Assembly (NCBI GenBank): GCA_964403585.1
Contig: CAYOFQ010000001.1
Location: forward strand, 1,152,826 to 1,216,825
DNA from: an uncultured Gammaproteobacteria bacterium
GTDB lineage: Bacteria > Patescibacteriota > Microgenomatia > JALYQM01
Reading direction: 5' to 3'
DNA length: 64,000 nucleotides
Each line of letters opens with the position of its first letter. Within the stretch, counting starts at the first letter, position 1. A program made the position numbers and the translations under genes. The notes under the pieces are model-generated. The model saw only the letters and a program-made list of their open reading frames with translations, was not told the origin of the DNA and searched no databases. This document shows, piece after piece, positions 1,711 to 32,619 of this stretch.

Positions 1711-3300
1711 TTAGTTCTGTACATTATATTTAACCGCAACACCGGATGCTGACACATATTTGCTTGTACCTTCCATGTTGATAAAGAGCAAACTATGGAC
1801 ACCATTCGTAGTTTTAGTTGTATCCCAGGTTAAATTCCCGTTGAAGTGGGCATTTGTCTCCATTAAAGTGGTTCCCGTTTGCGTACCTTCAACGCGGACA
1901 TGTTGAGATGGATCAAGGAATACAAAGGTTTTAAATTGGTCACCACAACCACCGTTACTTTCAAACGGAATAGTGATAGTTCCTTTTACCGTTGGAATCG
2001 GTTCGCTCCCTTTCATATATTTATCAGCATTTTTAAGAATAAGGCGTTGATACGTACCACAGGTGCCAATCCAGTAGCGGGATGTAAGTTCGGATGAGCT
2101 CCGATATCCGATTCCTGTTTGCCAGTTTGAAGACAGGAAATGCCGCTGACCATCTAGTCCATCAAAATCGGCATTCGGGGTATACCGCATTTCTGTCGCT
2201 TTGCTGAAGTCTCCTGCACGCACCGTATGAATGTTTTCCGTTTTACATTCTTTACCCTCATACTTAGTACTTTGACAGGGAGCCATATTCATGGTGAACT
2301 GCTCATAAGTGCTACCCTGATTCTGCGAACGATACCACGCTGAGTTCTTGCTGCTGAACGGAATAATCGAGTTATACCGGACAAAGGTACAGGATATTTT
2401 CATTGCTTCCTTCAAAAATTGCCCGTTAGCTCGTACCGCGGGAACATTACATTCATAATGCTGGTGTAACAGCCGGGGAGTATAGTTCACATTCATCGTT
2501 TGTGCGGATGCCGGCACATTATCAAACCAGGATTGATAGGATACCGGCATACAACCGGCACTCGCATTTGGGAACCGTCCACAGGGAAGGTCACCGGAAA
2601 CCGGGGGTAGAGTCGGATTTGTAGTCTGCGTTGGATTTACCGTAGGAGTTGGAGTTGCTGTTGAGCTCCCGCTCGGAACAAATATCACCAGATACATTGA
2701 ATAGGCATTACCAGGAACATCTGCAGCCGGACCCATTTGATACGTCCCGGCGGATACCTGTCGCTTATAGATATCATATAAACCGATTAACCCCTGCTCA
2801 TTTTTACGCAATAGATATTGATTGACATTGGATTGATTGTCGTCGGTCTGACGGGTGTATTGAGAGGTTATCCACGAAGCTGCTGATGACTGCAGAACAT
2901 GTCGCGTCGCAATAAATAACGTTCCCGGCTGATTAAGGGTAACACTCCAGCTCAAATTGGGATTGTCCTTTATTTCTGCGTTCGGAGTTTGGATATACGT
3001 ACCACCTTGCATAGCCGGATCGAGTCTAAAAAAAGTATACCGGGAGTCAGTACCGTAAATTTGTCCGTTTATGTTCAGACATTGTTTGCTGAACGTATAC
3101 CCGCCAAAACTTGTTACGGAAGCGATATCGGCCGGACAGGAAGCGGCTTGAGTGAGGTCGGTTCTTTGAAATACTCCCCGGGCACCGCTAAACACCAATA
3201 AGACAACCACAAAAACGAGCACTACTACAATAGCAGGCAAAAACAGAAGGGTACTAGAAGTTCGCTTCTTAATCATAAACAACCTCGTGATCAAAATCAC
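1711..3300 (-). CDS. membrane-anchored/secreted protein: N-terminal novel domain, T/P-rich linker, Cys-rich C-terminal domain
   Basis: Signal-anchor LLFLPAIVVVLVFVVVLLVF; TATPTPTVNPTQTTNPT linker; the N-terminal roughly 155 aa are paralogous to the C-terminus of the 28721..30670 product. Confidence 0.5.
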   Translation of the reverse strand: MILITRLFMIKKRTSSTLLFLPAIVVVLVFVVVLLVFSGARGVFQRTDLTQAASCPADIASVTSFGGYTFSKQCLNINGQIYGTDSRYTFFRLDPAMQGGTYIQTPNAEIKDNPNLSWSVTLNQPGTLFIATRHVLQSSAASWITSQYTRQTDDNQSNVNQYLLRKNEQGLIGLYDIYKRQVSAGTYQMGPAADVPGNAYSMYLVIFVPSGSSTATPTPTVNPTQTTNPTLPPVSGDLPCGRFPNASAGCMPVSYQSWFDNVPASAQTMNVNYTPRLLHQHYECNVPAVRANGQFLKEAMKISCTFVRYNSIIPFSSKNSAWYRSQNQGSTYEQFTMNMAPCQSTKYEGKECKTENIHTVRAGDFSKATEMRYTPNADFDGLDGQRHFLSSNWQTGIGYRSSSELTSRYWIGTCGTYQRLILKNADKYMKGSEPIPTVKGTITIPFESNGGCGDQFKTFVFLDPSQHVRVEGTQTGTTLMETNAHFNGNLTWDTTKTTNGVHSLLFINMEGTSKYVSASGVAVKYNVQN

Positions 3301-3395: not shown

Positions 3396-4310
3396 ATGAG
3401 CGAAAATGTGCTTGAAGTCAAAAATCTGGTCAAGGACTATAAAGGGTATCGTGCGGTAAACGATATCTCCTTTAAAGTACCCAAGGGGAAAGTCGTCGGA
3501 TTTTTGGGACCAAATGGCGCCGGAAAAACAACAACCATTCAAATCCTTATCGGCATTACGAAAGAAACTTCAGGTACCATCAGCTACTTTGGATTACCAT
3601 TTTCAAAAAATAGGGAAACAGTTCTGGGCCGGGTTAATTACACGTCTGCATTTAACACATTATTGGGAAGAATTTCCGTTATTGAAAATCTCCTGGTTTA
3701 CGCAAACCTGTATGGAGTAACCAATCCTCGCAACAGAGTAAATGAACTTATTTCCTTTTTTGATCTTGAAGAGCAACGGAATGAAGTATATTGGAATCTC
3801 TCGGCCGGACAAAAAACACGGGTAAATCTGGTCAAATCGCTACTCAATGATCCGGAACTTATCCTGATGGATGAACCCACAGCTTCACTGGACCCTGATG
3901 TTGCCGACAAAACACTCTCCCTTATTGAAGAACTGCGCGATCAACGTCAGATTTCCATCTTATATACAAGTCATAACATGAATGAAATTACCCGAATTTG
4001 TGATGAAGTAATTTTCCTCGATAAGGGTAAAATTGTGGCTCAGGATACTCCTCTTAACTTAACCAAACGCATCGATAGATCTATTTTGATTCTATATGTC
4101 GGTAATATCGAACAAAGTCATACAATCCTAAGGGAGAACAATCTCGAATATAAGAGTGAGCATAACCGTCTTGAGATCCCCACCCGCGAAGAAAAAATAG
4201 CACCTCTAATAATTGAACTGGGAAATAAAGGGCTGGATATTCGTGACCTGGAGATAGTAAAACCGAATCTTGAGGATGTATTTTTACAAATAGCCAGAGG
4301 AACAGAATAA
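3396..4310 (+). CDS. ABC transporter ATP-binding protein (ABC-2 exporter type)
   Basis: Walker A GPNGAGKTT, signature LSAGQKTRV, Walker B ILMDEPTASLD. Confidence 0.9.
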   Translation: MSENVLEVKNLVKDYKGYRAVNDISFKVPKGKVVGFLGPNGAGKTTTIQILIGITKETSGTISYFGLPFSKNRETVLGRVNYTSAFNTLLGRISVIENLLVYANLYGVTNPRNRVNELISFFDLEEQRNEVYWNLSAGQKTRVNLVKSLLNDPELILMDEPTASLDPDVADKTLSLIEELRDQRQISILYTSHNMNEITRICDEVIFLDKGKIVAQDTPLNLTKRIDRSILILYVGNIEQSHTILRENNLEYKSEHNRLEIPTREEKIAPLIIELGNKGLDIRDLEIVKPNLEDVFLQIARGTE

Positions 4311-6462: not shown

Positions 6463-7050
6463 TTAACTAACTAAATGTGAAATATCGTCAAACGATTGCA
6501 CAGAAAACGTCTGCCCGTCAAAACCTATCTTTGATATTGAACACTCATGAATTCCTTCCATTAAGCGTGTACCCAATATTTGTTTATGTTCAGGAGACAA
6601 TAATGTTAGAAAATCCCGAATTGTACCACCATGAGTTACTGCTACAATATGATAATCATTTCCGGGCTCGGCAACCTCACGCATAAATTCTTCCAGCAGT
6701 GTTGCCGTTTGATGTACCGATTTACCCCCTTTCGGAACGTAATCAGGGTTATCAGTCGACTTGTTCCATTCTTCTAAGAATGCCGCAAACGATTGTCTGG
6801 CATCATTCCAGTTCATACGCTCACTTAAACGATCTTCCACCTGGGTACGTACATTACATGCAGTCCCAATTATCTCTGCCGTTTCCTGAGCACGAAGGAG
6901 CGGACTACAATAGACAGCGGAAATCGGCAATCTCGACAGAAACTCCCCAGTTTTTTTTGCCTGCGCTCTTCCTGTGTCAGTTAATGATGGATCACCGGAA
7001 TTCGGCCGTTTTTCACCATGTCGAATAAGGTAAAAAGTAGTCATACGCAT
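6463..7050 (-). CDS. histidine phosphatase family protein (phosphoglycerate mutase-like)
   Basis: N-terminal FYLIRHGEK (RHG catalytic motif) and VAVTHGGTIR. Confidence 0.8.
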   Translation of the reverse strand: MRMTTFYLIRHGEKRPNSGDPSLTDTGRAQAKKTGEFLSRLPISAVYCSPLLRAQETAEIIGTACNVRTQVEDRLSERMNWNDARQSFAAFLEEWNKSTDNPDYVPKGGKSVHQTATLLEEFMREVAEPGNDYHIVAVTHGGTIRDFLTLLSPEHKQILGTRLMEGIHECSISKIGFDGQTFSVQSFDDISHLVS

Positions 7051-7068
7051 ATGATATCATTCGCCGAA

Positions 7069-7302
7069 CTATTCCGGACGAGCGTGTTCCCATATCGGTA
7101 AACGTCGGCCAGGAATACCATATCGGGTTAAGAACTGAGGGACTTCAACTCGTCGTACCAGCATCAGGCGTGGTGTATTCTCTGCAACCAGCCGTTTGAG
7201 AGGGAAATACAAAACAGGCACCAGAAACTGCTGCCAGGTTGCATCCCCCACCCAATCGGTATCCAGATCAAAAAATTCGTGAAACGGCAGATCCGGAGTC
7301 AT
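7069..7302 (-). CDS. small hypothetical protein; same frame as the upstream ORF, separated by TGA plus one codon
   Basis: ORF only; in-frame TGA at 7306..7308. Confidence 0.3.
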   Translation of the reverse strand: MTPDLPFHEFFDLDTDWVGDATWQQFLVPVLYFPLKRLVAENTPRLMLVRRVEVPQFLTRYGIPGRRLPIWEHARPE

Positions 7303-7305
7303 ACG

Positions 7306-7557
7306 TCATACTAGCCTGCGAACCGAAAAAGTACCTGATAAACGAGCCAGAACAGCATCAGTTATATCAGAACAATACCCGCCGATTGCTACATCGATAG
7401 GATCCAGACCTTTATTCCGGGAAACAACTGTATAAGCATGCTCAACTGCCGATTCAACAACGGAAATTTGCTGTTGCGAAGCTAAAAATTCTGCCATGGA
7501 GCGCATTATATCAAATAACCGCCCCAACAGCTCTATTATGCAACCAAATAGTTGCAT
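7306..7557 (-). CDS. small hypothetical protein
   Basis: ORF only; weak resemblance to the minimal nucleotidyltransferase hS-x-G...DxD pattern (VVSRNKGLDPIDVAI). Confidence 0.3.
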   Translation of the reverse strand: MQLFGCIIELLGRLFDIMRSMAEFLASQQQISVVESAVEHAYTVVSRNKGLDPIDVAIGGYCSDITDAVLARLSGTFSVRRLV

Positions 7558-7614
7558 AATTCAATATTTCGTATTATACTCCGGATATTACAAATATATT
7601 AAGAAAGAAAAAGC

Positions 7615-8055
7615 ATGCAAAACACTATCGTTCGCGAAATTACAGTTAAAGCGACTAAAGAAAAAGTATTTGGAGCAATCACAGATCCGCAACAGATTGT
7701 GCAATGGTTTCCCGAAGCAATTGAAGGTACGCTAAATGAAGGAGATCGCCCGATCCTCGATTTCGGCGAATACGGCAAGAACCAGATCTATGTTGAAGCA
7801 GTTCACCCATTTAATTACTTCGCCTACCGCTGGATCCCGGGCAGTAATCATTTTATCGGCGATGTGCTGTCTAAACCTAATACGCTGGTGGAATTTCGGC
7901 TTGAGGAATCCGCTGAAGGGACAAAAGTTACGGTAACTGAAAGCGGCTTTGCCTCATTACCAGCTGAAGTTGCCGAACAATGTTTCAAAGACAATTCAGG
8001 TGGATGGGATTATATGATGGGCCGCCTGGAAAAAATGCTGAATGGAGAATCATGA
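7615..8055 (+). CDS. SRPBCC/AHSA1 (activator of Hsp90 ATPase homolog)-like protein
   Basis: Size and pattern typical of the Aha1/SRPBCC family (ITVKATKEKVFGAITDPQQIVQWFP...); co-operonic with an ArsR regulator, a common pairing. Confidence 0.6.
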   Translation: MQNTIVREITVKATKEKVFGAITDPQQIVQWFPEAIEGTLNEGDRPILDFGEYGKNQIYVEAVHPFNYFAYRWIPGSNHFIGDVLSKPNTLVEFRLEESAEGTKVTVTESGFASLPAEVAEQCFKDNSGGWDYMMGRLEKMLNGES

Positions 8056-8360
8056 TTACTTCTGATTTTTTTCGCGCCCTGGGCGATCCTATCCGATTGG
8101 AGATGGTCAAACGACTTTCTGAGGGACCGCCGCACAACTTATCTTCAGTTTCCGAGGGGTTAAAAATTACCCGCCAGGGCGCCAGAAAACACCTGCAGGT
8201 CCTGATCGACTCGCACATCATTACCATTGAAACCAAGGGTAGAGAGACACACATCCGTCTCGACCGTTCCACAATTAAAGAAGGTCAAGCCTTTATAGCT
8301 GAACTGGAAAAACAGTGGGATAACCGACTTGAAGCATTACGCAAATTCGTGGAAAGTTAA
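8052..8360 (+). CDS. ArsR/SmtB-family HTH transcriptional regulator
   Basis: FRALGDPIRLEMVKRLSEG...LSSVSEGLKITRQGARKHLQVL is a winged HTH; ATGA overlap with the upstream stop. The MITSDFF start at 8052 is preferred. Confidence 0.8.
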   Translation: MITSDFFRALGDPIRLEMVKRLSEGPPHNLSSVSEGLKITRQGARKHLQVLIDSHIITIETKGRETHIRLDRSTIKEGQAFIAELEKQWDNRLEALRKFVES

Positions 8361-8415
8361 GTTGTTGCGTTACTTGGACAATATTAGAACCTATTTAGTT
8401 CAAAACAGTTATAAC

Positions 8416-9099
8416 TTATTTGTGAAAAACTATAGATAAAATAATAACTATTAATAAAGCAGGTAGAAAATTTACTACTTTTAACTTCTTAATCTCTAAA
8501 ATATTAATACCTACTCCAACTATAAGTAAACCACCTACAGCAGTTAACTGATTGATAAGAAAAAGACTAAATGCAGCTGAAAAATAATGAGCAATTAAAG
8601 TAAGAATTGTTTGAATAATAATCAAAGGAATAAAAGATAAGAGAACTCCAACACCATAAACTGAAGCTAATGCAATTGAACTAAATCCATCAAAGATAGC
8701 TTTTGTAAACAATAAGCTATAATCTCCCTGAATCCCCTGGTTAATAGATCCTACTATTCCTAATGCTCCAGTACAAAACAAAATAAATGAATTAGCAAAT
8801 CCTATACTAAAAGAATCATTATTGGATTTAAATCTTTTCTTTAAAACTAAAGATAAGGACTCAAGTTTTTTATCAATGTTAAGTAATTCTCCAACTACTC
8901 CACCTAAAACTAAGCTGAGAATAACCGTTAAGATCTCTTCAACTTTTAATGCTCCTCTCATACCAATTAGCAACAAAGAAAGGCCAAGACCTTGAAAAAC
9001 AATAGCCTTAATCTGTTCAGGAATGTTTCTCAAGAACATAATTCCTAAGGTGCTACCAACCAATATAGCTATTGCATTGACAAAAGTACCTAATAACAT
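8416..9099 (-). CDS. DUF554 (YqgA-like) integral membrane protein
   Basis: MLLGTFVNAIAILVGSTLG...QGLGLSLLLIGM...ILSLVLGGVVGELLNID matches the DUF554 N-terminal signature. Confidence 0.7.
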   Translation of the reverse strand: MLLGTFVNAIAILVGSTLGIMFLRNIPEQIKAIVFQGLGLSLLLIGMRGALKVEEILTVILSLVLGGVVGELLNIDKKLESLSLVLKKRFKSNNDSFSIGFANSFILFCTGALGIVGSINQGIQGDYSLLFTKAIFDGFSSIALASVYGVGVLLSFIPLIIIQTILTLIAHYFSAAFSLFLINQLTAVGGLLIVGVGINILEIKKLKVVNFLPALLIVIILSIVFHK

Positions 9100-15650: not shown

Positions 15651-16979
15651 TTATTCTTCCGACATCTGAGACAGTCTAAAATCAATCCGCTCCATATCAC
15701 GCGGGAACATTGCTGCTTCACGAATATTTTCCAGTTCCAGAATCTGTTTGGTTATTCGCTCAGCCCCGAAGGCAAATCCCCCTTCCGGAGGTGCTCCGTA
15801 TTTAAACGCATCAAGAAACATCCGTACTTTCTCGGGATCCATATTCCACTCTTCGACATGTTTCATCAGCTGATTATAATCATTGATACGTCGACCTCCG
15901 GATAACCACTCTACACCCCGGCAAAGAAGGTCCATACCTTCGTTGTATTCAGGCTCTTCCGGATTGGGATACACATAGAACGGTTTTTTCTTGGTTGGAT
16001 ATCCGTACACAAACACCAGATCGGATCCGGTTTCTTCTTTGATAATTCGGCAAAGCTCACGCTCATCTTCAGGATTTAAGTCTTTTTCACCACGAACATC
16101 ACGCCCGTTTTTAGCAAATATCTTTTCCTGAGCTTCACGTAAGCTTAAGGTAGGTGTTTTTTCAATCGTTGCCGGAATCTCCACACCAAACAATGCAACT
16201 TCCTTGGCACACTTTTCACCAACCTGCTGCAAAATATATTTAACTACCCCGTCAGCCATATCGCGCACATCGGTCCACGATTCAATAAATCCCATTTCGG
16301 CATCCAGCGATACAATCTCAGTCAAGTGACGTGTAGTGACAGAAGGTTCTGCCCGGAATACTTTGTTAACGGAAAAAACGCGTTCGAAAGCTGTCATGAC
16401 AATCTGTTTATACAATTGTGGACTTTGCGTAAGATAGGCTTTTTTATCAAAGTACTCAACTTCAAAAACCTCCGCTCCACCTTCAGCGGTTGCCGGTGCA
16501 ATCGCCGGCGCCTGGAATTCAAAAAAGTCATGTTGTTTCATGTATTCCCGGAAAGCATCAATCACAACTTCCTGCACTTTGAAAATCGCCTGTACACGCG
16601 GGTGTCGCAAAGTTAATGCCCGGTGATCCAGGAGTGTCGGTAATTCTACATCCAAGACATCCTTTGACATATCAAACGGCAAAGTCGCTGATTTTGCCAA
16701 AACCGTATACTCTTCCACATCCAGCTCAATCTTACCCGTCTCTAAGTCAGGGTTGATTGCTTTTTCCGAACGATTCTTAATCGTTCCAACAATTTGCACC
16801 ACATCCTCTTTACCCAACTCCGACATCTTCTGGTAACCAACCAGTTGAATCTTCCCTGAACGGTCACGTAAATCTATGAAAGTCAACTTACCATGGTCAC
16901 GCTTGGTATCGACCCATCCTTTAAGTAATACCTTTTCGCCTACCTTTCCGGTAGTTTCCCGAACTAATGTTCTTTCCAT
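15651..16979 (-). CDS. class IIb aminoacyl-tRNA synthetase: aspartate--tRNA ligase (archaeal/type-2) or asparagine--tRNA ligase
   Basis: N-terminal OB fold; motif 2 FRAE; QSPQLYKQ; motif 3 GFAFGAERI; 442 aa. Asp versus Asn specificity cannot be resolved by eye. Confidence 0.85.
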   Translation of the reverse strand: MERTLVRETTGKVGEKVLLKGWVDTKRDHGKLTFIDLRDRSGKIQLVGYQKMSELGKEDVVQIVGTIKNRSEKAINPDLETGKIELDVEEYTVLAKSATLPFDMSKDVLDVELPTLLDHRALTLRHPRVQAIFKVQEVVIDAFREYMKQHDFFEFQAPAIAPATAEGGAEVFEVEYFDKKAYLTQSPQLYKQIVMTAFERVFSVNKVFRAEPSVTTRHLTEIVSLDAEMGFIESWTDVRDMADGVVKYILQQVGEKCAKEVALFGVEIPATIEKTPTLSLREAQEKIFAKNGRDVRGEKDLNPEDERELCRIIKEETGSDLVFVYGYPTKKKPFYVYPNPEEPEYNEGMDLLCRGVEWLSGGRRINDYNQLMKHVEEWNMDPEKVRMFLDAFKYGAPPEGGFAFGAERITKQILELENIREAAMFPRDMERIDFRLSQMSEE

Positions 16980-16984
16980 AAAAC

Positions 16985-17165
16985 CTCCTAAATACTAAAA
17001 AAGCCCTTATAAAATTACCTAAACGATAATTATATAAGGGCGCTTTTCGCGCGGTGCCACCTTACTTTGTGCTCATTGACGGCTATAACGGGCGTTCCCG
17101 GAGAGTTCTACTACCAAGAAGGGTTCTTCTCTCAGCTCACCTGTGTCGCAGGGTCATTGCTTTTC
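16985..17165 (-). promoter_or_regulatory. T-box riboswitch leader of the Asp/Asn-tRNA synthetase gene
   Basis: Minus-strand AAGUAAGGUGGCACCGCGCG (T-box core GGUGGNACCGCG) at 17048..17067, overlapping the 5' arm of a terminator GCCCUUAUA...UAUAAGGGC + U6 (16996..17041). The T-box 5' half mimics the terminator 3' arm. Candidate -35 TTGTTC / -10 TATACT at 17197..17170. Confidence 0.65.
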
Positions 17166-17373
17166 ATTGAGTATACCATACATTGTTATAAGAACAAGAA
17201 AGACATAGTAAAATAGTCGATATTTCTTACCCAGATAGCGCTAAAAACCCCTTTAATTGACAAAATAAGTTAAAATAGTATAATATCCTATAATATAAGT
17301 ATATAAGGATAACTAAGCGACAGTAACCAAATTATGCAGTAATAGGGGTATATAAGTATCCTTAGTTCCAGCC

Positions 17374-17400
17374 TTGACAAAAGGATCTGTGTACTATAAA
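17374..17400 (+). promoter_or_regulatory. candidate sigma70 promoter (TTGACA-N15-TATAAA) for the 17619 gene and its leader
   Basis: TTGACA at 17374..17379, TATAAA at 17395..17400. Confidence 0.35.
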
Positions 17401-17549
17401 AATAGTCTGTTATATGATTAATAACTCAGTTTCTACCAATTACCTTAACCTCAATCTCATTAATTACGGGATTCGTAATTTTGCGTTTATTCATGCAAAA
17501 AAGCAAAGGGGGTAAGTTTTTAAACGCTAAACCGAATAAAACAGACCAA

Positions 17550-17575
17550 ACCCCCTCAACAAAGGGGGTTTTTCC
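17550..17575 (+). terminator. intrinsic terminator/attenuator in the 5' leader of the 574-aa gene
   Basis: ACCCCCU-CAACAA-AGGGGGU followed by UUUUUCC; upstream AAGGGGG (17506..17512) can alternatively pair with CCCCCU. Confidence 0.5.
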
Positions 17576-17618
17576 GTTAAATATAGGAGTAATTTAACAG
17601 GATAGAGAAAGTACAAAT

Positions 17619-19343
17619 ATGAGCGTAGAGACAAATAATCGCTATAAAACCTTTGATTCTCAATTGCTTTTAGGCAATACGGGAATCTTTGGTCGCCGCC
17701 GGGAAGATACTCTTCCCCTCTACGCCCCTTTGAACAGAAAGTTGGCCGATGTTCGTCCATATACCCGAATGAGAATCGACGGCCAAGACTACAATGCAAT
17801 TTCCGACTTCCGTACCGTGCGATCATTATTAAATGACTTAATTCCGACGCAGGCAGATATAATTCGTTGGGGAGTAACCCACCCGGACATCGTACATAAA
17901 CACCAGTCCGAGTATATCGGGGCTCTTTCAGCTCAATCCGTTCGACAACCCGGAGAAAAGTTAAATATAGCTGAGGCCATATTAGCCATCAATAGTCAAA
18001 ATGAAATCCTCCAAGAAGTTGCTCGTGACAATTTAATTCGGATTATGATGGAACGTCATGGATTTAACCCTAATGATGAATGTGATAGTGAAAAATTCAA
18101 CCAATACCTATTACAAGGCACTAGAGTAGCCGACGAACTCATCAACGAAGAACGCGATTTTCTAACCCCTGTTTGGGAAAAATCATCACTCCCTACCGTA
18201 ACAGAATTACAGGAACAAGTTAAAACTGATAATTTGTACACATTAATCCGATTCGCAACAAATCCTCGTGCAACCGCAAAAATACGTGAAGAAGCAACAC
18301 GAAAAGCAGTATTAATTGACCAAGCGATAGCGGCTATCTTGCGGATTGAGTCCGCAAACGGAACCATTGAAGAGGTTCATAAAGTTCTTGATGCCCACTT
18401 ATGGGAAGAAGAACAAATTGGCGAAATCCAACTCCGTGGTATTGTAATGACCCATGATGTTCGTACAGAACGATGCTTGTCTTGGGAAATCTACGATCCA
18501 CAAAAGCACGGCGCTCGTGGAAGTAGACTTCCCAAAGGTGAAACCTGGGTACAAAGATACTATGAAATGCCGTTCCACCAAATAATTCATAACGAGGAAC
18601 AACTCCAGATCCTAATGACCAGTCGAAAAAAGGAAGACGTCGCAACTCTTGCAAAATTACTCTTGAAAAACGGTGAACTCCCTGAAGATATCCGTGGAAT
18701 CCGATTCGTAGTCGATAGTCCTGAGCACGCAAAGTTGTTATCACAGCTCCTGGTTAATGCATTTCATAAATCAGGTTGGTTGCTAATGCCACAAGAGAAA
18801 GGACAAACTTTAACCCTCACTGGAGGTTTCAGCATCGAGCTAGCTGATGGGACTCACTGCGAATTTGTTCCTCCAGATGAAGTTATCAATCAAGCCAAAA
18901 GTAGCGGATTCGGCGTATTGCAATTTGATGCCCAAGTTGAAGCAGCAACTCCAACAGCACAACACACGTTACACCCAATGAAACAATTTGAGGTTCAAAT
19001 ATTCTCGATTGCCTCACTCAGAAATTCCCAGCGAGAATGGGAAATCGGTGATCCTAAACCAAATTTTCATGCCGGATATGTTTTGACAAAACGGTTCTTC
19101 GAGCGAAGGATAATCCTAGACCAGTTTGGTAACCCGGCAACAGCGGACAACTACTACACGCGATTATTCCCGGATTGGTATCTAACACGAATACAACAGA
19201 GAAGAGACGAAACAGACGTAGATAGAGCATCCCGTATCAGAACAATGCTAGATTCAGAGGAACAACCATTCAGATTAATGCTTATAGAAGGAGCTCACCG
19301 CCGTATTAGAGATGAGAGCTCAAACCGCTACATCCCATACTAA
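17619..19343 (+). CDS. hypothetical 574-aa protein with a possible divergent RelA/SpoT-like (nucleotidyltransferase) core
   Basis: Long uninterrupted ORF. Central region carries SRKKEDVATLAK, PEDIRGIRFVVD, GGFSIEL and FEVQIFS..REWEIG, which align in order with GRAKHMYSLWKK, ADLIAVRVIL, NGYRSLHT and MEVQIRT..AEYGIASH of the genuine Rel in this window. Confidence 0.45.
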   Translation: MSVETNNRYKTFDSQLLLGNTGIFGRRREDTLPLYAPLNRKLADVRPYTRMRIDGQDYNAISDFRTVRSLLNDLIPTQADIIRWGVTHPDIVHKHQSEYIGALSAQSVRQPGEKLNIAEAILAINSQNEILQEVARDNLIRIMMERHGFNPNDECDSEKFNQYLLQGTRVADELINEERDFLTPVWEKSSLPTVTELQEQVKTDNLYTLIRFATNPRATAKIREEATRKAVLIDQAIAAILRIESANGTIEEVHKVLDAHLWEEEQIGEIQLRGIVMTHDVRTERCLSWEIYDPQKHGARGSRLPKGETWVQRYYEMPFHQIIHNEEQLQILMTSRKKEDVATLAKLLLKNGELPEDIRGIRFVVDSPEHAKLLSQLLVNAFHKSGWLLMPQEKGQTLTLTGGFSIELADGTHCEFVPPDEVINQAKSSGFGVLQFDAQVEAATPTAQHTLHPMKQFEVQIFSIASLRNSQREWEIGDPKPNFHAGYVLTKRFFERRIILDQFGNPATADNYYTRLFPDWYLTRIQQRRDETDVDRASRIRTMLDSEEQPFRLMLIEGAHRRIRDESSNRYIPY

Positions 19344-28720: not shown

Positions 28721-30670
28721 ATGAAAAAGCATCTCCTTTTGGCCTGCGTAACATTTATTTTCAGTACCCTAATATATGGAGTTCTAACACAATCAAATCT
28801 TGGTAGCGATATCCAACGTCAATCTGAAACATTTGCGGCCGGTACAACCTACTATGTGGATTGCTCGAATGGTAGCGATGCTGCTAACGGAACATCCGCC
28901 AACACCGCATGGAAAAGTTTAACCAAAGCCAATGTCGCATCGTTAAGTCCCGGTGACAAGTTGGCATTTAAAAGAGGATGCATCTGGAGCGGACGACTCA
29001 AGGCCGGTTGGAAAGGTACTGCAGCGGCACCCATAACTATCGGCGATTATGGAACCGGAGCCCTACCAAGTATCCAAACTCCTCCCTCTTTAACATCGAG
29101 CCGCGTAGAGGTAACGGGCGACTATCAAATCATCGAAAACCTTGATGTTCGAACAATCAATACGCAAGTAGATCCCAACTGCCGGAATCAAAGGATCGGG
29201 TATTTCGTTGGATTCAATTTCATCGGAACAAGTGCCAATAATATTCTGAGAAATACTAAATCCAGCGGTAATACTATCGGTGTCCAAATTCATGACGACA
29301 GCCACCATAATAAAATTTTAAATAATGAAATGTTTAATAACGGAGTCATGAATAAATTAACACCCGACCCTTCACCCGACCTTGGAGCGTGGGGTATGAA
29401 TCTCCGCGGCGATGACAATGAGATTGCCTATAACTATATCCACGACAATAACGGGGTATGCGCCTATGATTTTAGCATTCAGCCGGGAAATGCCATCGAA
29501 CTGTATAACGCCGACCGCAACCTGATTCACCATAACAAAGTAATTAATGACCGTGTTTTCTCAGAAGTTGGTCATGACGGTAGTCATACTGCCAACGACA
29601 ACGTTTGGGCATACAACATCTTTATCAGCAACACCAAAACATCACGTTTTCTGGTATTACACGGAGCCAATAGTTCCTTTGGACCGGTTCTGCGCAGCAA
29701 AGCCTTCAATAATAGTATATATCTGTACGGACCAACAAGTACCGGTATTGGCAGCAGCGATAATGCAACTATAGTTAAAAACAACATTGTTGTCGCAACA
29801 GACCAACTTACCAGTTCCACAGAGATTAATCAAAGTAATAACATTTGGTGGAATCCTAACGGGCCCGCCGTTGTAAAAAAACTTGGACCGGGTGATCGAA
29901 AAATTGATCCGCAATTCGTCAATCCCACCCAGGGCGATTTACATCTGAAAGCAACCAGTCCTGCCATAAACGCCGGGACCACAACCGGACTGAGCCTTAG
30001 TACAGATTTTGACGGTAATACTGTTCCCGTTGGAACTAACTATGATATCGGCGCCTACGAATTTACGACCGGCACTACTCCCTCACCATCCTCAAGTCCA
30101 ACACCAACACCTACTCCAACTCCATCACCAACTCCCAGTCCAACATCAACCGTAGCTCCGACTCCTACACCAACAGCCGCGCCGTGCGCGAATGACAATT
30201 TATTTACTATCGTCCCGTCAGTGAACTATACCTTTTCCAAAGGTTGCTTAACTATCGGATCAACAATCTATAGTGATGATACCCGGTTCACCTATTTCTC
30301 CCTGCCATCATATCTGCAAAATCTACCAACCGTAAAAACCGGCAATATTGCGGAAAAAAGCGACCTGAACCTTAATTTTGGTATTCGAGCCAACTCCCCG
30401 GTTAAAGTCTACCTGATGTACCGTAAAATACCGGGCCAGGGAGTCCCCACATGGATCACGGAAAAATTTACTAAGATCACGTCTGAGAGCTACGAGAATT
30501 TGCCCGAGTTTGCGCTACGAAAAAATGAGCAGGGACTTATTGGGGTGTACGATATCTACGAACAGAAAACTAGGCTTGTCGCCGGAGAAAGTTTGGCTCT
30601 CGGCCCTGCTTCAGATACTACCCATACAGCCTTCTCTATGTATTTAGTGGCTATAGCACCACAACAATAA
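28721..30670 (+). CDS. secreted right-handed beta-helix (pectate-lyase-fold) protein, T/P-rich linker, C-terminal novel shared domain
   Basis: Signal peptide; repeated NN..G, IHDNNGV and HHNKVIND beta-helix rungs; linker PSPSSSPTPTPTPTPSPTPSPTS; C-terminal 155 aa paralogous to the N-terminal domain of the 1711..3300 product. Confidence 0.6.
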   Translation: MKKHLLLACVTFIFSTLIYGVLTQSNLGSDIQRQSETFAAGTTYYVDCSNGSDAANGTSANTAWKSLTKANVASLSPGDKLAFKRGCIWSGRLKAGWKGTAAAPITIGDYGTGALPSIQTPPSLTSSRVEVTGDYQIIENLDVRTINTQVDPNCRNQRIGYFVGFNFIGTSANNILRNTKSSGNTIGVQIHDDSHHNKILNNEMFNNGVMNKLTPDPSPDLGAWGMNLRGDDNEIAYNYIHDNNGVCAYDFSIQPGNAIELYNADRNLIHHNKVINDRVFSEVGHDGSHTANDNVWAYNIFISNTKTSRFLVLHGANSSFGPVLRSKAFNNSIYLYGPTSTGIGSSDNATIVKNNIVVATDQLTSSTEINQSNNIWWNPNGPAVVKKLGPGDRKIDPQFVNPTQGDLHLKATSPAINAGTTTGLSLSTDFDGNTVPVGTNYDIGAYEFTTGTTPSPSSSPTPTPTPTPSPTPSPTSTVAPTPTPTAAPCANDNLFTIVPSVNYTFSKGCLTIGSTIYSDDTRFTYFSLPSYLQNLPTVKTGNIAEKSDLNLNFGIRANSPVKVYLMYRKIPGQGVPTWITEKFTKITSESYENLPEFALRKNEQGLIGVYDIYEQKTRLVAGESLALGPASDTTHTAFSMYLVAIAPQQ

Positions 30671-30683
30671 CTACATAAAAAAA

Positions 30684-30702
30684 TACCCCGGATCCCGGGG
30701 TA
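30684..30702. terminator. bidirectional terminator hairpin (perfect palindrome TACCCCGGATCCGGGGTA) between convergent genes
   Basis: A-run upstream and T-rich downstream; lies between the beta-helix gene and ftsH. Confidence 0.6.
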
Positions 30703-30726
30703 TTAAATTCTTTAGAAATCACTCTC

Positions 30727-32619
30727 CTATGCAGAAGGTTCGGTAAGTATCTCCGGACCACTGGGAACTTTTAGTTCACCACCACGTAGAATACCGGTTA
30801 CTTCGGCCATAATATCACGGAACCGGTCGGCATCAATCGTTTCTTCCTTCATAAGCGCTTCGGTTACCGCTTCCAAACCTTTTCGGTAGGTAGTCAAAGC
30901 TTCGTCAGCCATATCGGAAGACTTTTTCAATATCTTTTGCACCTCTTCATCAATACGGGCCATTAAATCATTTGAATAATACTCTTTTACATCATCGTAA
31001 CCATACGAACCTCGCTTTTCAGTAGAAATAGGACCAAGATCGCTCATTCCATACATCGTAACCATGTCCCGTGCCAGACCATTCGCCTTCTCCAAATCGT
31101 TGGATGCGCCGATTGTTAACTCATTGTACACAAGCTTTTCCGCTGCGCGTCCACCGAGCATTCCTGCGATCAATTCAAACAGGCGGGTACGTGTATCATT
31201 ATATCGGTCCTGTTCCGGTGTAGCAGTAGTAAATCCGAGCGCCATACCCCGCGAAACAATCGAGATTCTATTGACAGGATCGAGATGTTTCATTGCCCAC
31301 ATCACAACTGCATGCCCTGCTTCATGATAGGCAGTCATTCGACGATCTTCTTCAGACTGCATTCGCTTACGCTCAGGACCCAATTTCACCTTGAGAGCAG
31401 CATTTTCAATATCATGAATATCTATAACTTTCTTGTTCTGACGGGCTGCCAATATCGCCGCTTCATTAAGCATGTTTTCCACATCGGCACCGCTAAATCC
31501 AACCGTTCTACGGGCTATGCGATCAAAATCAATATCCTTGGCCATAGATTTACCACGGCTGTGAATACGGATTAATTCTTTACGGCCGTTTATATCCGGC
31601 AAATCCAGGTGAACAATACGATCAAAACGTCCCGGACGCAGTAACGCTTTATCCAGCATATCCGGACGGTTCGTTGCAGCAAGAACAATCACATTATCAT
31701 TTACGGCAAAACCATCCATTTCTACCAGAATCTGGTTGAGTGTTTGTTCGCGCTCATCATGACCACCTGAAAACCCGTTCCCACGCTGACGGCCAATCGC
31801 ATCTATTTCATCAATAAAAATAATTGCAGGACCACTTTTCTTTGCGGTAGCAAACAAATCACGCACACGTGATGCGCCAACACCAACCAACATTTCCATA
31901 AATTCAGAACCGGCAACCGAGAAGAAAGCGACATTCGCCTCTCCCGCCACAGCTTTGGCTAATAAAGTTTTTCCAACACCCGCCGGCCCGACAAGTAATA
32001 CTCCTTTCGGAGTACGTGCTCCAAGCGCATGAAATTTTTCCGGCACTTTTAAGAACTCCACCACTTCTTCCAATTCGGCCTTAGCTTCATCAACACCGGC
32101 AACGTCAGAGAATTTATTACGGGGTTGATCTTTATTGAACAGTTTAGCGCGGGATTGGCCAAAGGAAAAAAGTGAACCTTGCGATTCACGTGCCTGCCGG
32201 AAAATTACAAAGAAAAATCCGACAATCAAAAGCATCGGTAATACGGTAGTTAACAAATTAATCCAGGCATCGCCAAAAGATGAATCCTTAACCGTAACAC
32301 TCACCGACTTGGGATCAATTCCCGAACTTTCCAAAGTGCGCACAATGCTTTCGTTGTCTTTATAGGTTACCTTTTCAGCATTATCTTTATATTTCGCGCT
32401 AATCTTATTTCCTTCTACCGTTAAGCTTTTTACTTTATCCGCTTTTACGTCATTAAGTACCGTGGATAACGGAACTTCGGAACCTCCTGCAGAAGGATTA
32501 AGCAACGAAACAATGATTAAAAGGCTTATTAGACCAATAACCGAGGATAAAAGAAATCCTTTCCATCGACCACCCGGTGGTTTCTCTTTTGGTGTAGCAG
32601 AATCATTTTTTAATGCCAT
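30727..32619 (-). CDS. ftsH: ATP-dependent zinc metalloprotease FtsH
   Basis: N-terminal TM plus periplasmic domain, AAA Walker [19 protein letters not shown] zinc motif; 630 aa. Confidence 0.9.

Follow-up and report, generated by a model that had tools for sequence, protein, structure and literature searches.

A probable leader-peptide transcription attenuator with a leaderless or near-leaderless reading frame ahead of a putative RelA/SpoT-type gene in an uncultured bacterial lineage

What allows RNA polymerase to reach a gene that lies directly behind an intrinsic terminator? The question is raised by a 64-kb stretch of contig CAYOFQ010000001.1 from an uncultured bacterium (the window, to which coordinates refer unless another locus is named), in which a leader on the plus strand separates a promoter from the gene of a 574-amino-acid (aa) protein. 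An earlier reading of the letters alone, here called the original prediction, described three short G- or C-rich segments in this leader, A, B and C, and proposed that B pairs either with C, forming a terminator, or with A, forming an antiterminator, the choice being made by a ribosome on a 34-codon leader open reading frame (ORF) that spans all three. Comparing the locus with its relatives, we find that the leader is probably a ribosome-mediated (leader-peptide) transcription attenuator, read through a different ORF. It combines an intrinsic terminator within the leader, an antiterminator that excludes it by claiming B, and a short ORF placed over A.

The leader sits in a 640-bp intergenic region between two divergent genes, aspS on the minus strand and the 574-aa ORF on the plus strand, within a conserved gene order of peptidase S11, aspS, the gene of interest, CCA-adding enzyme, RecJ and RelA. 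Orthologous loci were gathered by walking this synteny from same-clade RecJ homologues, the sole source of added orthologues, and ten distinct loci were compared: the window, L002, L004, L006, L031, L032, L033, L034, L036 and L037. The clade is an unclassified 'bacterium' lineage whose next-nearest RecJ matches come from Patescibacteria (about 40–46% identity), and the host appears to belong to an uncultured lineage related to the candidate phyla radiation (CPR), near Patescibacteria. All ten loci share one layout, namely a promoter, a small ORF, segment A at its stop codon, an A/T-rich spacer, the B:C terminator and the start of the next gene, and this architecture is kept despite the divergence of the downstream protein, which in the five most distant loci (L031, L032, L034, L036 and L037) is only 17–27% identical to that of the window. 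In L033 the intact leader (3572..3972), with its promoter, a 33-codon ORF, A, spacer and terminator, stands ahead of an unrelated 61-aa ORF.

We first consider the terminator. The original prediction read B as ACCCCCT (17550–17556) and C as AGGGGGT (17563–17569); both are present, C being followed by TTTTCC, and both RNAfold and a terminator scan recovered B:C as an intrinsic terminator, with a stem that can be extended to 9 bp (AAACCCCCU/AGGGGGUUU, about −13.7 kcal/mol). Segment A is equally real, although AAGGGGG (17506–17512), the register originally given, is one base out, the perfect 7-bp complement of B being found at 17507–17513. Across the loci, A reads (G)GAGGGG, AGGGGGU or a variant, and the terminator reads CCCC(C)UCC-loop-GAGGGG(G)U followed by U's. 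From the end of the G-run of A to the start of the C-run of B there are 32–43 nt of 71–88% A+T (38 nt and 71% in the window). The distance from the terminator to the downstream start codon is 14–58 nt in all ten loci and 23 nt or less in seven of them; since this short gap leaves no room for a separate promoter, the gene must be reached by read-through. The 7-mer AGGGGGT/ACCCCCT occurs six times on both strands of the window, which equals the chance expectation, and three of these copies lie within 63 nt here, oriented as the switch requires. A covariance model of the unit from A to the terminator matched exactly once in each locus and at no other place in the window; given this single occurrence per locus, a repeated genomic element was ruled out as the nature of the terminator. 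Elsewhere in the window, the convergent genes 28721..30670 (+) and 30727..32619 (−) are separated by a strong, bidirectional intrinsic terminator (AATACCCCGGGATCCGGGGTATT with a T-run), and G/C-run hairpins thus appear to serve ordinary gene ends in this genome as well.

The competition between A:B and B:C is borne out by the folds. In every one of the ten loci, no site of the entire upstream leader pairs with B as well as the A segment at the stop codon does; the duplex has 7–10 bp (−11.6 to −19.8 kcal/mol) and ranks among the best 0–2% of dinucleotide shuffles at each locus. The two folds are mutually exclusive: the minimum-free-energy (MFE) structure pairs B with A in 10/10 loci when the transcript ends before C, and B with C in 10/10 when the leader is complete, and B:C is again the fold in 10/10 when the bases that a ribosome on the stop codon would occupy are masked. 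On a structure-neutral MAFFT alignment of the ten loci, 86.5% of A:B cells are paired, compared to 43–69% when the partner columns are slid, with one compensatory position (UA, GC or AU, depending on the locus); the corresponding share of paired cells for B:C is 95.6%, with two compensatory positions. The covariation signal of A:B is about equal to that of the terminator itself.

Which ORF, then, would place a ribosome on this switch? The answer begins with the promoter. The −35 element TTGACA (17374–17379) was correctly recognized in the original prediction, but every orthologue has TTGACA-N17 spacing, which favours TAAAAA (17397–17402) as the −10 element over the N15-TATAAA given there; the TATAAA at 17395–17400 overlaps it. 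The layout TTGACA-N17-hexamer-N6-G(T) is common to all ten loci, four of them show a distance of exactly 35 nt from TTGACA to GTTAT, and TTGACA hexamers of this quality are rare elsewhere, the best match in another 20 kb scoring 10/12. Shortly behind this promoter lies a 33-codon ORF, with no Shine–Dalgarno (SD) sequence ahead of it, that ends at A (Table 1). Orthologous ORFs of 23–35 codons are found in 10/10 loci, starting 6–13 nt after the −10 element with an ATG (GTG at +7 in L037). Summed over the ten loci, this frame contains no in-frame stop, whereas its two alternatives contain 20 and 21. In shuffles, the probability of such openness is 0.09–0.23 per locus, which multiplies to 1.8e-9, a value that overstates independence, though the sequences are highly diverged.

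A start codon directly behind a promoter is not exceptional in this genome. Among 39 window ORFs of 200 aa or more, 14 have a −10-like hexamer (TA[TAC]AnT) ending 6–11 nt before the start codon, at a position that forms a sharp peak above a flat background, and only 10 have an SD-like 4-mer. These counts suggest that the lineage routinely uses leaderless mRNAs, and the small leader ORF appears to have the same architecture. The window additionally carries a second promoter farther upstream that matches the sigma-70 consensus perfectly (Table 1); the block containing it and the adjoining ATCCTATAA is common to the window and L031, and L032 and L034 have a second upstream TTGACA promoter, too.

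In 10/10 loci, the stop codon of this ORF starts no more than 8 nt ahead of and no more than 6 nt behind the end of the G-run of A, while the peptide tails encoded over A are read in differing frames (RRG*, QRG*, LRG*, YRG*, WRGQ*, PEGIK* and LEGE*) and L032 has a TAG stop immediately 5′ of A. Because the stop always adjoins A while the reading frame over A varies, A appears to be conserved as an RNA element where the terminating ribosome sits, not as part of a peptide. This changes the logic of the switch: if the true leader ORF ends at A, the ribosome would cover or expose A instead of translating the terminator. The position of a ribosome as the input of the switch, as originally proposed, is thus retained as most likely, with the ORF at 17414..17515 taking the place of the one at 17493..17597. 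That the latter is translated, and that the position of a ribosome along its 34 codons picks the structure, is barely conceivable. This ORF exists in the window but is not conserved, its frame being interrupted in L002, L004 and L006, and 4/10 loci have no open frame at all across A to C. Moreover, it has no SD sequence and lies about 85 nt from the predicted transcription start, and any ribosome moving along it would open the terminator hairpin under all conditions.

If the 33-codon frame and its orthologues are translated, the resulting peptides are poorly conserved, with a mean column identity of 33% over lengths of 23–35 residues. They share one nearly invariant Arg with hydrophobic or aromatic flanks, in a conserved I/W-x-R-x-F/Y patch; they contain no Asp and only rarely Glu, Val or Pro. 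Cys, Trp, Asn and His are enriched 2.3–3-fold at positions that are not conserved. Two codon-based signals were considered and rejected: rare-codon sensing at the conserved Arg, since CGN makes up 82% of the Arg codons of the genome, and a cluster of Asn or other amino-acid-specific codons, since none is conserved. An alternative account would make the small ORF an independent small-protein gene with a leaky terminator, so that the 574-aa gene is served by constitutive partial read-through and A:B has no role. The clear maintenance of the ORF, the shared Arg with its hydrophobic or aromatic flanks, the avoidance of acidic residues and the persistence of leader and ORF before an unrelated 61-aa ORF in L033 would all fit such a gene. 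We nevertheless consider it unlikely, given that peptide identity is low, that lengths vary and C-termini are read in different frames, that the nucleotides of A are conserved and always at the stop codon, and that A is the best partner of the terminator 5′ arm in 10/10 loci, which a plain 3′ end would not need.

What is observed at these loci, namely a conserved anatomy, a conserved ORF with its stop codon at A, and the alternative pairings, fits together in a simple scheme, for which we infer translation of the ORF, the direction of regulation and the timing of coupling from the sequences. Transcription would begin a few bases past TAAAAA, such that the RNA starts at, or almost at, the AUG of the 33-codon ORF, with A in its last codons and the stop codon directly after. 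A ribosome that keeps pace with the polymerase would be on the stop codon, covering A, as B emerges about 37 nt further on. With A covered, B could pair only with C, and transcription would end at about 17573, leaving the 574-aa gene untranscribed. If the ribosome were late, or stalled inside the ORF, A would be free, A:B would form first, C would stay unpaired and the polymerase would read through into the gene. The constant spacer of about 37 nt would roughly equal the minimal distance between ribosome and polymerase. At loci without a good segment 1 (a candidate partner of A inside the ORF; Table 1), a ribosome that never initiates would also leave A free and permit read-through; at about 4/10 loci, segment 1 could pair with A, as in the classical four-segment logic, and untranslated RNA would then terminate, too.

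Table 1 Features of the leader and its surroundings in the 64-kb window
Feature	Coordinates	Strand	Description
aspS	15651..16979	−	gene of a non-discriminating aspartyl-tRNA synthetase; divergent neighbour of the leader
T-box-like leader upstream of aspS	17033..17166	−	47.5 bits vs Rfam cut-off 93, E 4e-9
Likely aspS promoter	17196..17169	−	TTGTTC-N16-TATACT
Second promoter	17257..17284	+	TTGACA-N16-TATAAT, perfect sigma-70 consensus (12/12); 117 nt upstream of the leader promoter
Leader promoter	17374..17402	+	−35 TTGACA 17374–17379, 17-nt spacer, −10 TAAAAA 17397–17402
Leader ORF, leaderless or near-leaderless	17414..17515	+	33 codons, MINNSVSTNYLNLNLINYGIRNFAFIHAKKQRG; stop TAA 17513–17515
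Candidate segment 1	17443..17453	+	CCUUAACCUCA; possible anti-antiterminator partner of A, weak in the window
Segment A	17507..17513	+	AGGGGGU, antiterminator 5′ arm; over the final codons of the leader ORF, up to and including base 1 of its stop codon
A–B spacer	17514..17549	+	A/T-rich, unstructured; 10/10 loci
Intrinsic terminator	17548..17573	+	B arm (AA)ACCCCCU 17548–17556, loop CAACAA, C arm AGGGGGU(UU) 17563–17571; U-tract ends at 17573
Regulated gene	17619..19343	+	574-aa protein; probable very divergent RelA/SpoT-type (RSH synthetase-fold) nucleotidyltransferase
Bidirectional intrinsic terminator	30682..30704		between convergent genes

Several observations weigh against this scheme. 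By folding energies, the terminator state of the full-length leader is 5–16 kcal/mol more stable than the antiterminator; read-through would therefore have to be under kinetic control, as in other attenuators. Covariation is weak, since A, B and C hardly vary in their G/C cores: 27 of 500 and 23 of 500 shuffles reach the observed scores. The original prediction had asked for compensatory conservation in related genomes; all three segments were found to be kept in ten loci, and compensatory change was limited. The pairing of segment 1 with A is at chance level in the window and five other loci. In the window, the MFE fold includes a CCUU:AAGG pairing between the two, the best duplex having −6.9 kcal/mol and being no better than shuffles; a CCUC-rich segment 1 pairs with A better than shuffles (p<0.05) in only 4/10 loci (L031, L002, L004 and L033), which makes the classical four-segment scheme partial across the ten. 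Furthermore, the leader ORFs of the ten loci contain no run of codons for a single amino acid, and Asn is just 2.4-fold enriched, at non-conserved positions. The promoter at 17257–17284 would yield transcripts on which the small ORF is not leaderless; these would have a long 5′ untranslated region with no SD sequence before the ORF, and ribosome control might be bypassed on them. Finally, three elements of the scheme are predictions: where transcription starts, that the ORF is translated and that transcription ends prematurely.

The hairpins upstream of A also bear on the nature of the sensor. A ligand- or protein-binding RNA switch, that is, a riboswitch or the target of an antiterminator protein, would have its sensor upstream of A and would make the ORF incidental. 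In several loci, the stretch from segment 1 to A is predicted to form hairpins, which differ in sequence, and in about 4/10 loci a P1-like helix of segment 1 and A encloses them. Searches of Rfam, run on the window at the gathering threshold and on the region and its relatives at an E-value threshold, brought no family to its threshold on the leader strand, the best match being Phe_leader (RF01859; 28.2 bits compared to a cut-off of 55), with a score that comes mostly from the terminator. Between the start codon and A there is almost no invariant nucleotide, unlike in an aptamer, L006 is missing about 30 nt of this part, and the count of 0 stops compared to 20 and 21 would be hard to explain without translation. 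We regard an RNA switch as quite improbable and return to the ribosome-mediated attenuator.

If a ribosome is the input, what would it report? Candidate signals are a general slowing of translation (by starvation or inhibitors) or arrest of the nascent peptide through its Arg/aromatic patch. A bolder proposal, which we put forward as possible rather than likely, is that the attenuator is a generic sensor of ribosome lag, i.e., of transcription–translation coupling, that switches on a second RelA-like nucleotide pyrophosphokinase, highly divergent and fast-evolving, when ribosomes stall; the conserved Arg/aromatic patch might then be an arrest sequence that tunes the response. If this proposal is correct, the element would be a counterpart, at the level of transcription and in a lineage with leaderless mRNAs, of the sensing of stalled ribosomes by RelA.

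The regulated protein was compared with its relatives. A word-based search of a 5.8-billion-protein collection gave only four homologues, three of them non-identical (66, 52 and 46% identity), a profile search with 9 sequences added one further weak match, and a scan of genome contigs returned the L002 genome again and nothing else. Among metagenome contigs, a protein-pattern scan found no relatives of the protein, and a DNA-pattern scan for A plus the terminator gave 22 chance matches and no relatives. In three of these unrelated chance-match contigs, L023 (about 1930..2200, −), L029 and L030 (6780..7040, +), a classical leader peptide of the branched-chain type (MKKKIMHQTLLPIIPLTIILIKDKKGLT) and a terminator stand immediately before a gene that resembles ilvD, since its product begins MRSDEIKKG..RAPHR. 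Scanned in full with HMMER and the family profile, 1.84 billion representatives yielded 19 proteins.

The 574-aa protein of the window has no match in Pfam, NCBIfam or PADLOC (its neighbours have none in PADLOC, either). We consider it likely to be a divergent nucleotidyltransferase of the RelA/SpoT type, based on several concordant lines, none of which is significant alone. A consensus of 22 sequences shows the motif order of the RelA/SpoT homologue (RSH) synthetases (T-x-R-x-K...K-x-L-R-K, D-x-x-G-x-R-x-V, N...S, E-x-Q-x-x-T and H-x-x-Y). Six of the 22 members have sub-threshold matches to the Pfam family RelA_SpoT (15–24 bits; cut-off 27), the best at E 3.8e-5 and 24.4 bits, below that cut-off. 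The top PDB profile matches are RelP, RelQ and RelA (E 0.055–0.5), and hhalign aligned residues 312–369 with the synthetase motif R-x-K...K...D-x-x-G-x-R of the window's own RelA (E 0.0019). An AlphaFold model from 22 sequences reached a predicted local distance difference test (pLDDT) score of 79.7 and a predicted template modelling (pTM) score of 0.81; a model from 4 sequences was unusable (pLDDT 53). Foldseek returned no significant match of the 22-sequence model to the PDB, the matches of highest probability being to the tRNA pyrophosphokinase CapRel (0.57–0.60; E 0.25, not significant). The family thus shares its motif order with the RSH synthetases (small alarmone synthetases, toxSAS/CapRel) but differs from them in that the window protein matches no curated model and has, at its N-terminus, a helical region of about 270 residues.

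The family evolves far faster than its neighbours: the window protein is 27% identical to its counterpart in L031 (6491..8260; RecJ 78%) and 66% identical to that in L002 (RecJ 78%), and the L032 member (6785..8497) was also included in the comparison. Such fast divergence at a fixed locus suggests diversifying selection or allele replacement. In 9/10 loci, the RelA-like locus is accompanied by a divergently transcribed partner gene of one homologous, fast-evolving family. These partners lie between aspS and the leader (for example, L002 2283..4589, L031 3683..6118 and L034 3200..5401) and encode 331–822 aa; five of them have a recognizable RSH-hydrolase (HD_4) domain. In the window, the partner is cleanly absent (17170..17370), only the flanking promoter region being left, and none was found within the 64 kb, where tblastn with the partner proteins matched only the housekeeping RelA at about 23.7–24.3 kb. 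In L033, it is the RelA-like gene that has been replaced, with the HD_4-type partner kept. Synthetase and hydrolase, which in a toxSAS-SAH system would always occur together, are thus separated in both loci, as the window has no partner and L033 has no synthetase-like gene, and these reciprocal losses argue against an obligate toxin–antitoxin pair.

Further features flank the locus. A T-box-like leader lies upstream of aspS in the window and in three relatives (L002 2150..2295, L004 2596..2755 and L006 68..211, all on the minus strand); it lacks nearly all of stem I, 76 model positions being replaced by 5 nt. Downstream of the RelA-like gene, L002 (6710..7972) and L004 (6715..7950) have an extra gene of 411–420 aa with a weak P-loop (thymidylate-kinase-like) match (E about 1e-3), which is absent from the window. 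There, the 574-aa gene overlaps the convergent gene of the CCA-adding enzyme by 4 nt (19340..19343).

For annotation, the analysis yields a family of a small ORF plus RNA that is absent from Rfam, as well as a corrected assignment of the leader ORF. It describes a concrete cis-regulatory element in a CPR-related uncultured lineage, in which gene regulation is almost unknown, and it would extend leader-peptide attenuation with leaderless leader ORFs to this lineage. In addition, it flags an unannotated, fast-evolving RelA/SpoT-like family as one whose expression is likely conditional, probably on the status of translation.

How does the element compare with known attenuators? The trpL, pheL, hisL and ilv leaders likewise have a promoter-proximal short ORF, a terminator whose 5′ arm has an alternative partner upstream, and a stop codon placed such that a terminating ribosome blocks the antiterminator arm; a candidate for their ORF-internal segment 1, which can pair with segment 2, is seen here in some loci. 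Unlike in these leaders, there is no run of regulatory codons and the target is not biosynthetic, the ORF is predicted to be leaderless or nearly so, and the antiterminator has a long, A-rich loop of 32–43 nt. Leaderless polycysteine small ORFs that act as attenuators, with runs of Cys codons sensing cysteine, are documented in mycobacteria (Actinobacteria; bioRxiv 10.1101/834739). They, too, lie leaderless at the 5′ end of the transcript and act in cis via ribosome stalling (bioRxiv 10.1101/834739), whereas the present element has no codon run, belongs to another phylum and has an explicit pair of intrinsic terminator and antiterminator. By its proposed logic, the element would be closest to the translation-stress and antibiotic attenuators, such as the erm, vmlR and hflXr leaders. 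In leaders of this type (erm/ermK, vmlR, lmo0919 and hflXr), a stalled ribosome on a short upstream ORF without amino-acid codon runs frees an antiterminator that is the rival of an intrinsic terminator, and the genes under control handle ribosome or translation stress. The upstream ORF described here is longer (23–35 codons) than most of theirs, and its predicted target is an RSH-like enzyme, not a resistance factor. In conclusion, these comparisons suggest that the leader is a further case of a known kind of ribosome-sensing switch, one that Rfam does not yet contain.

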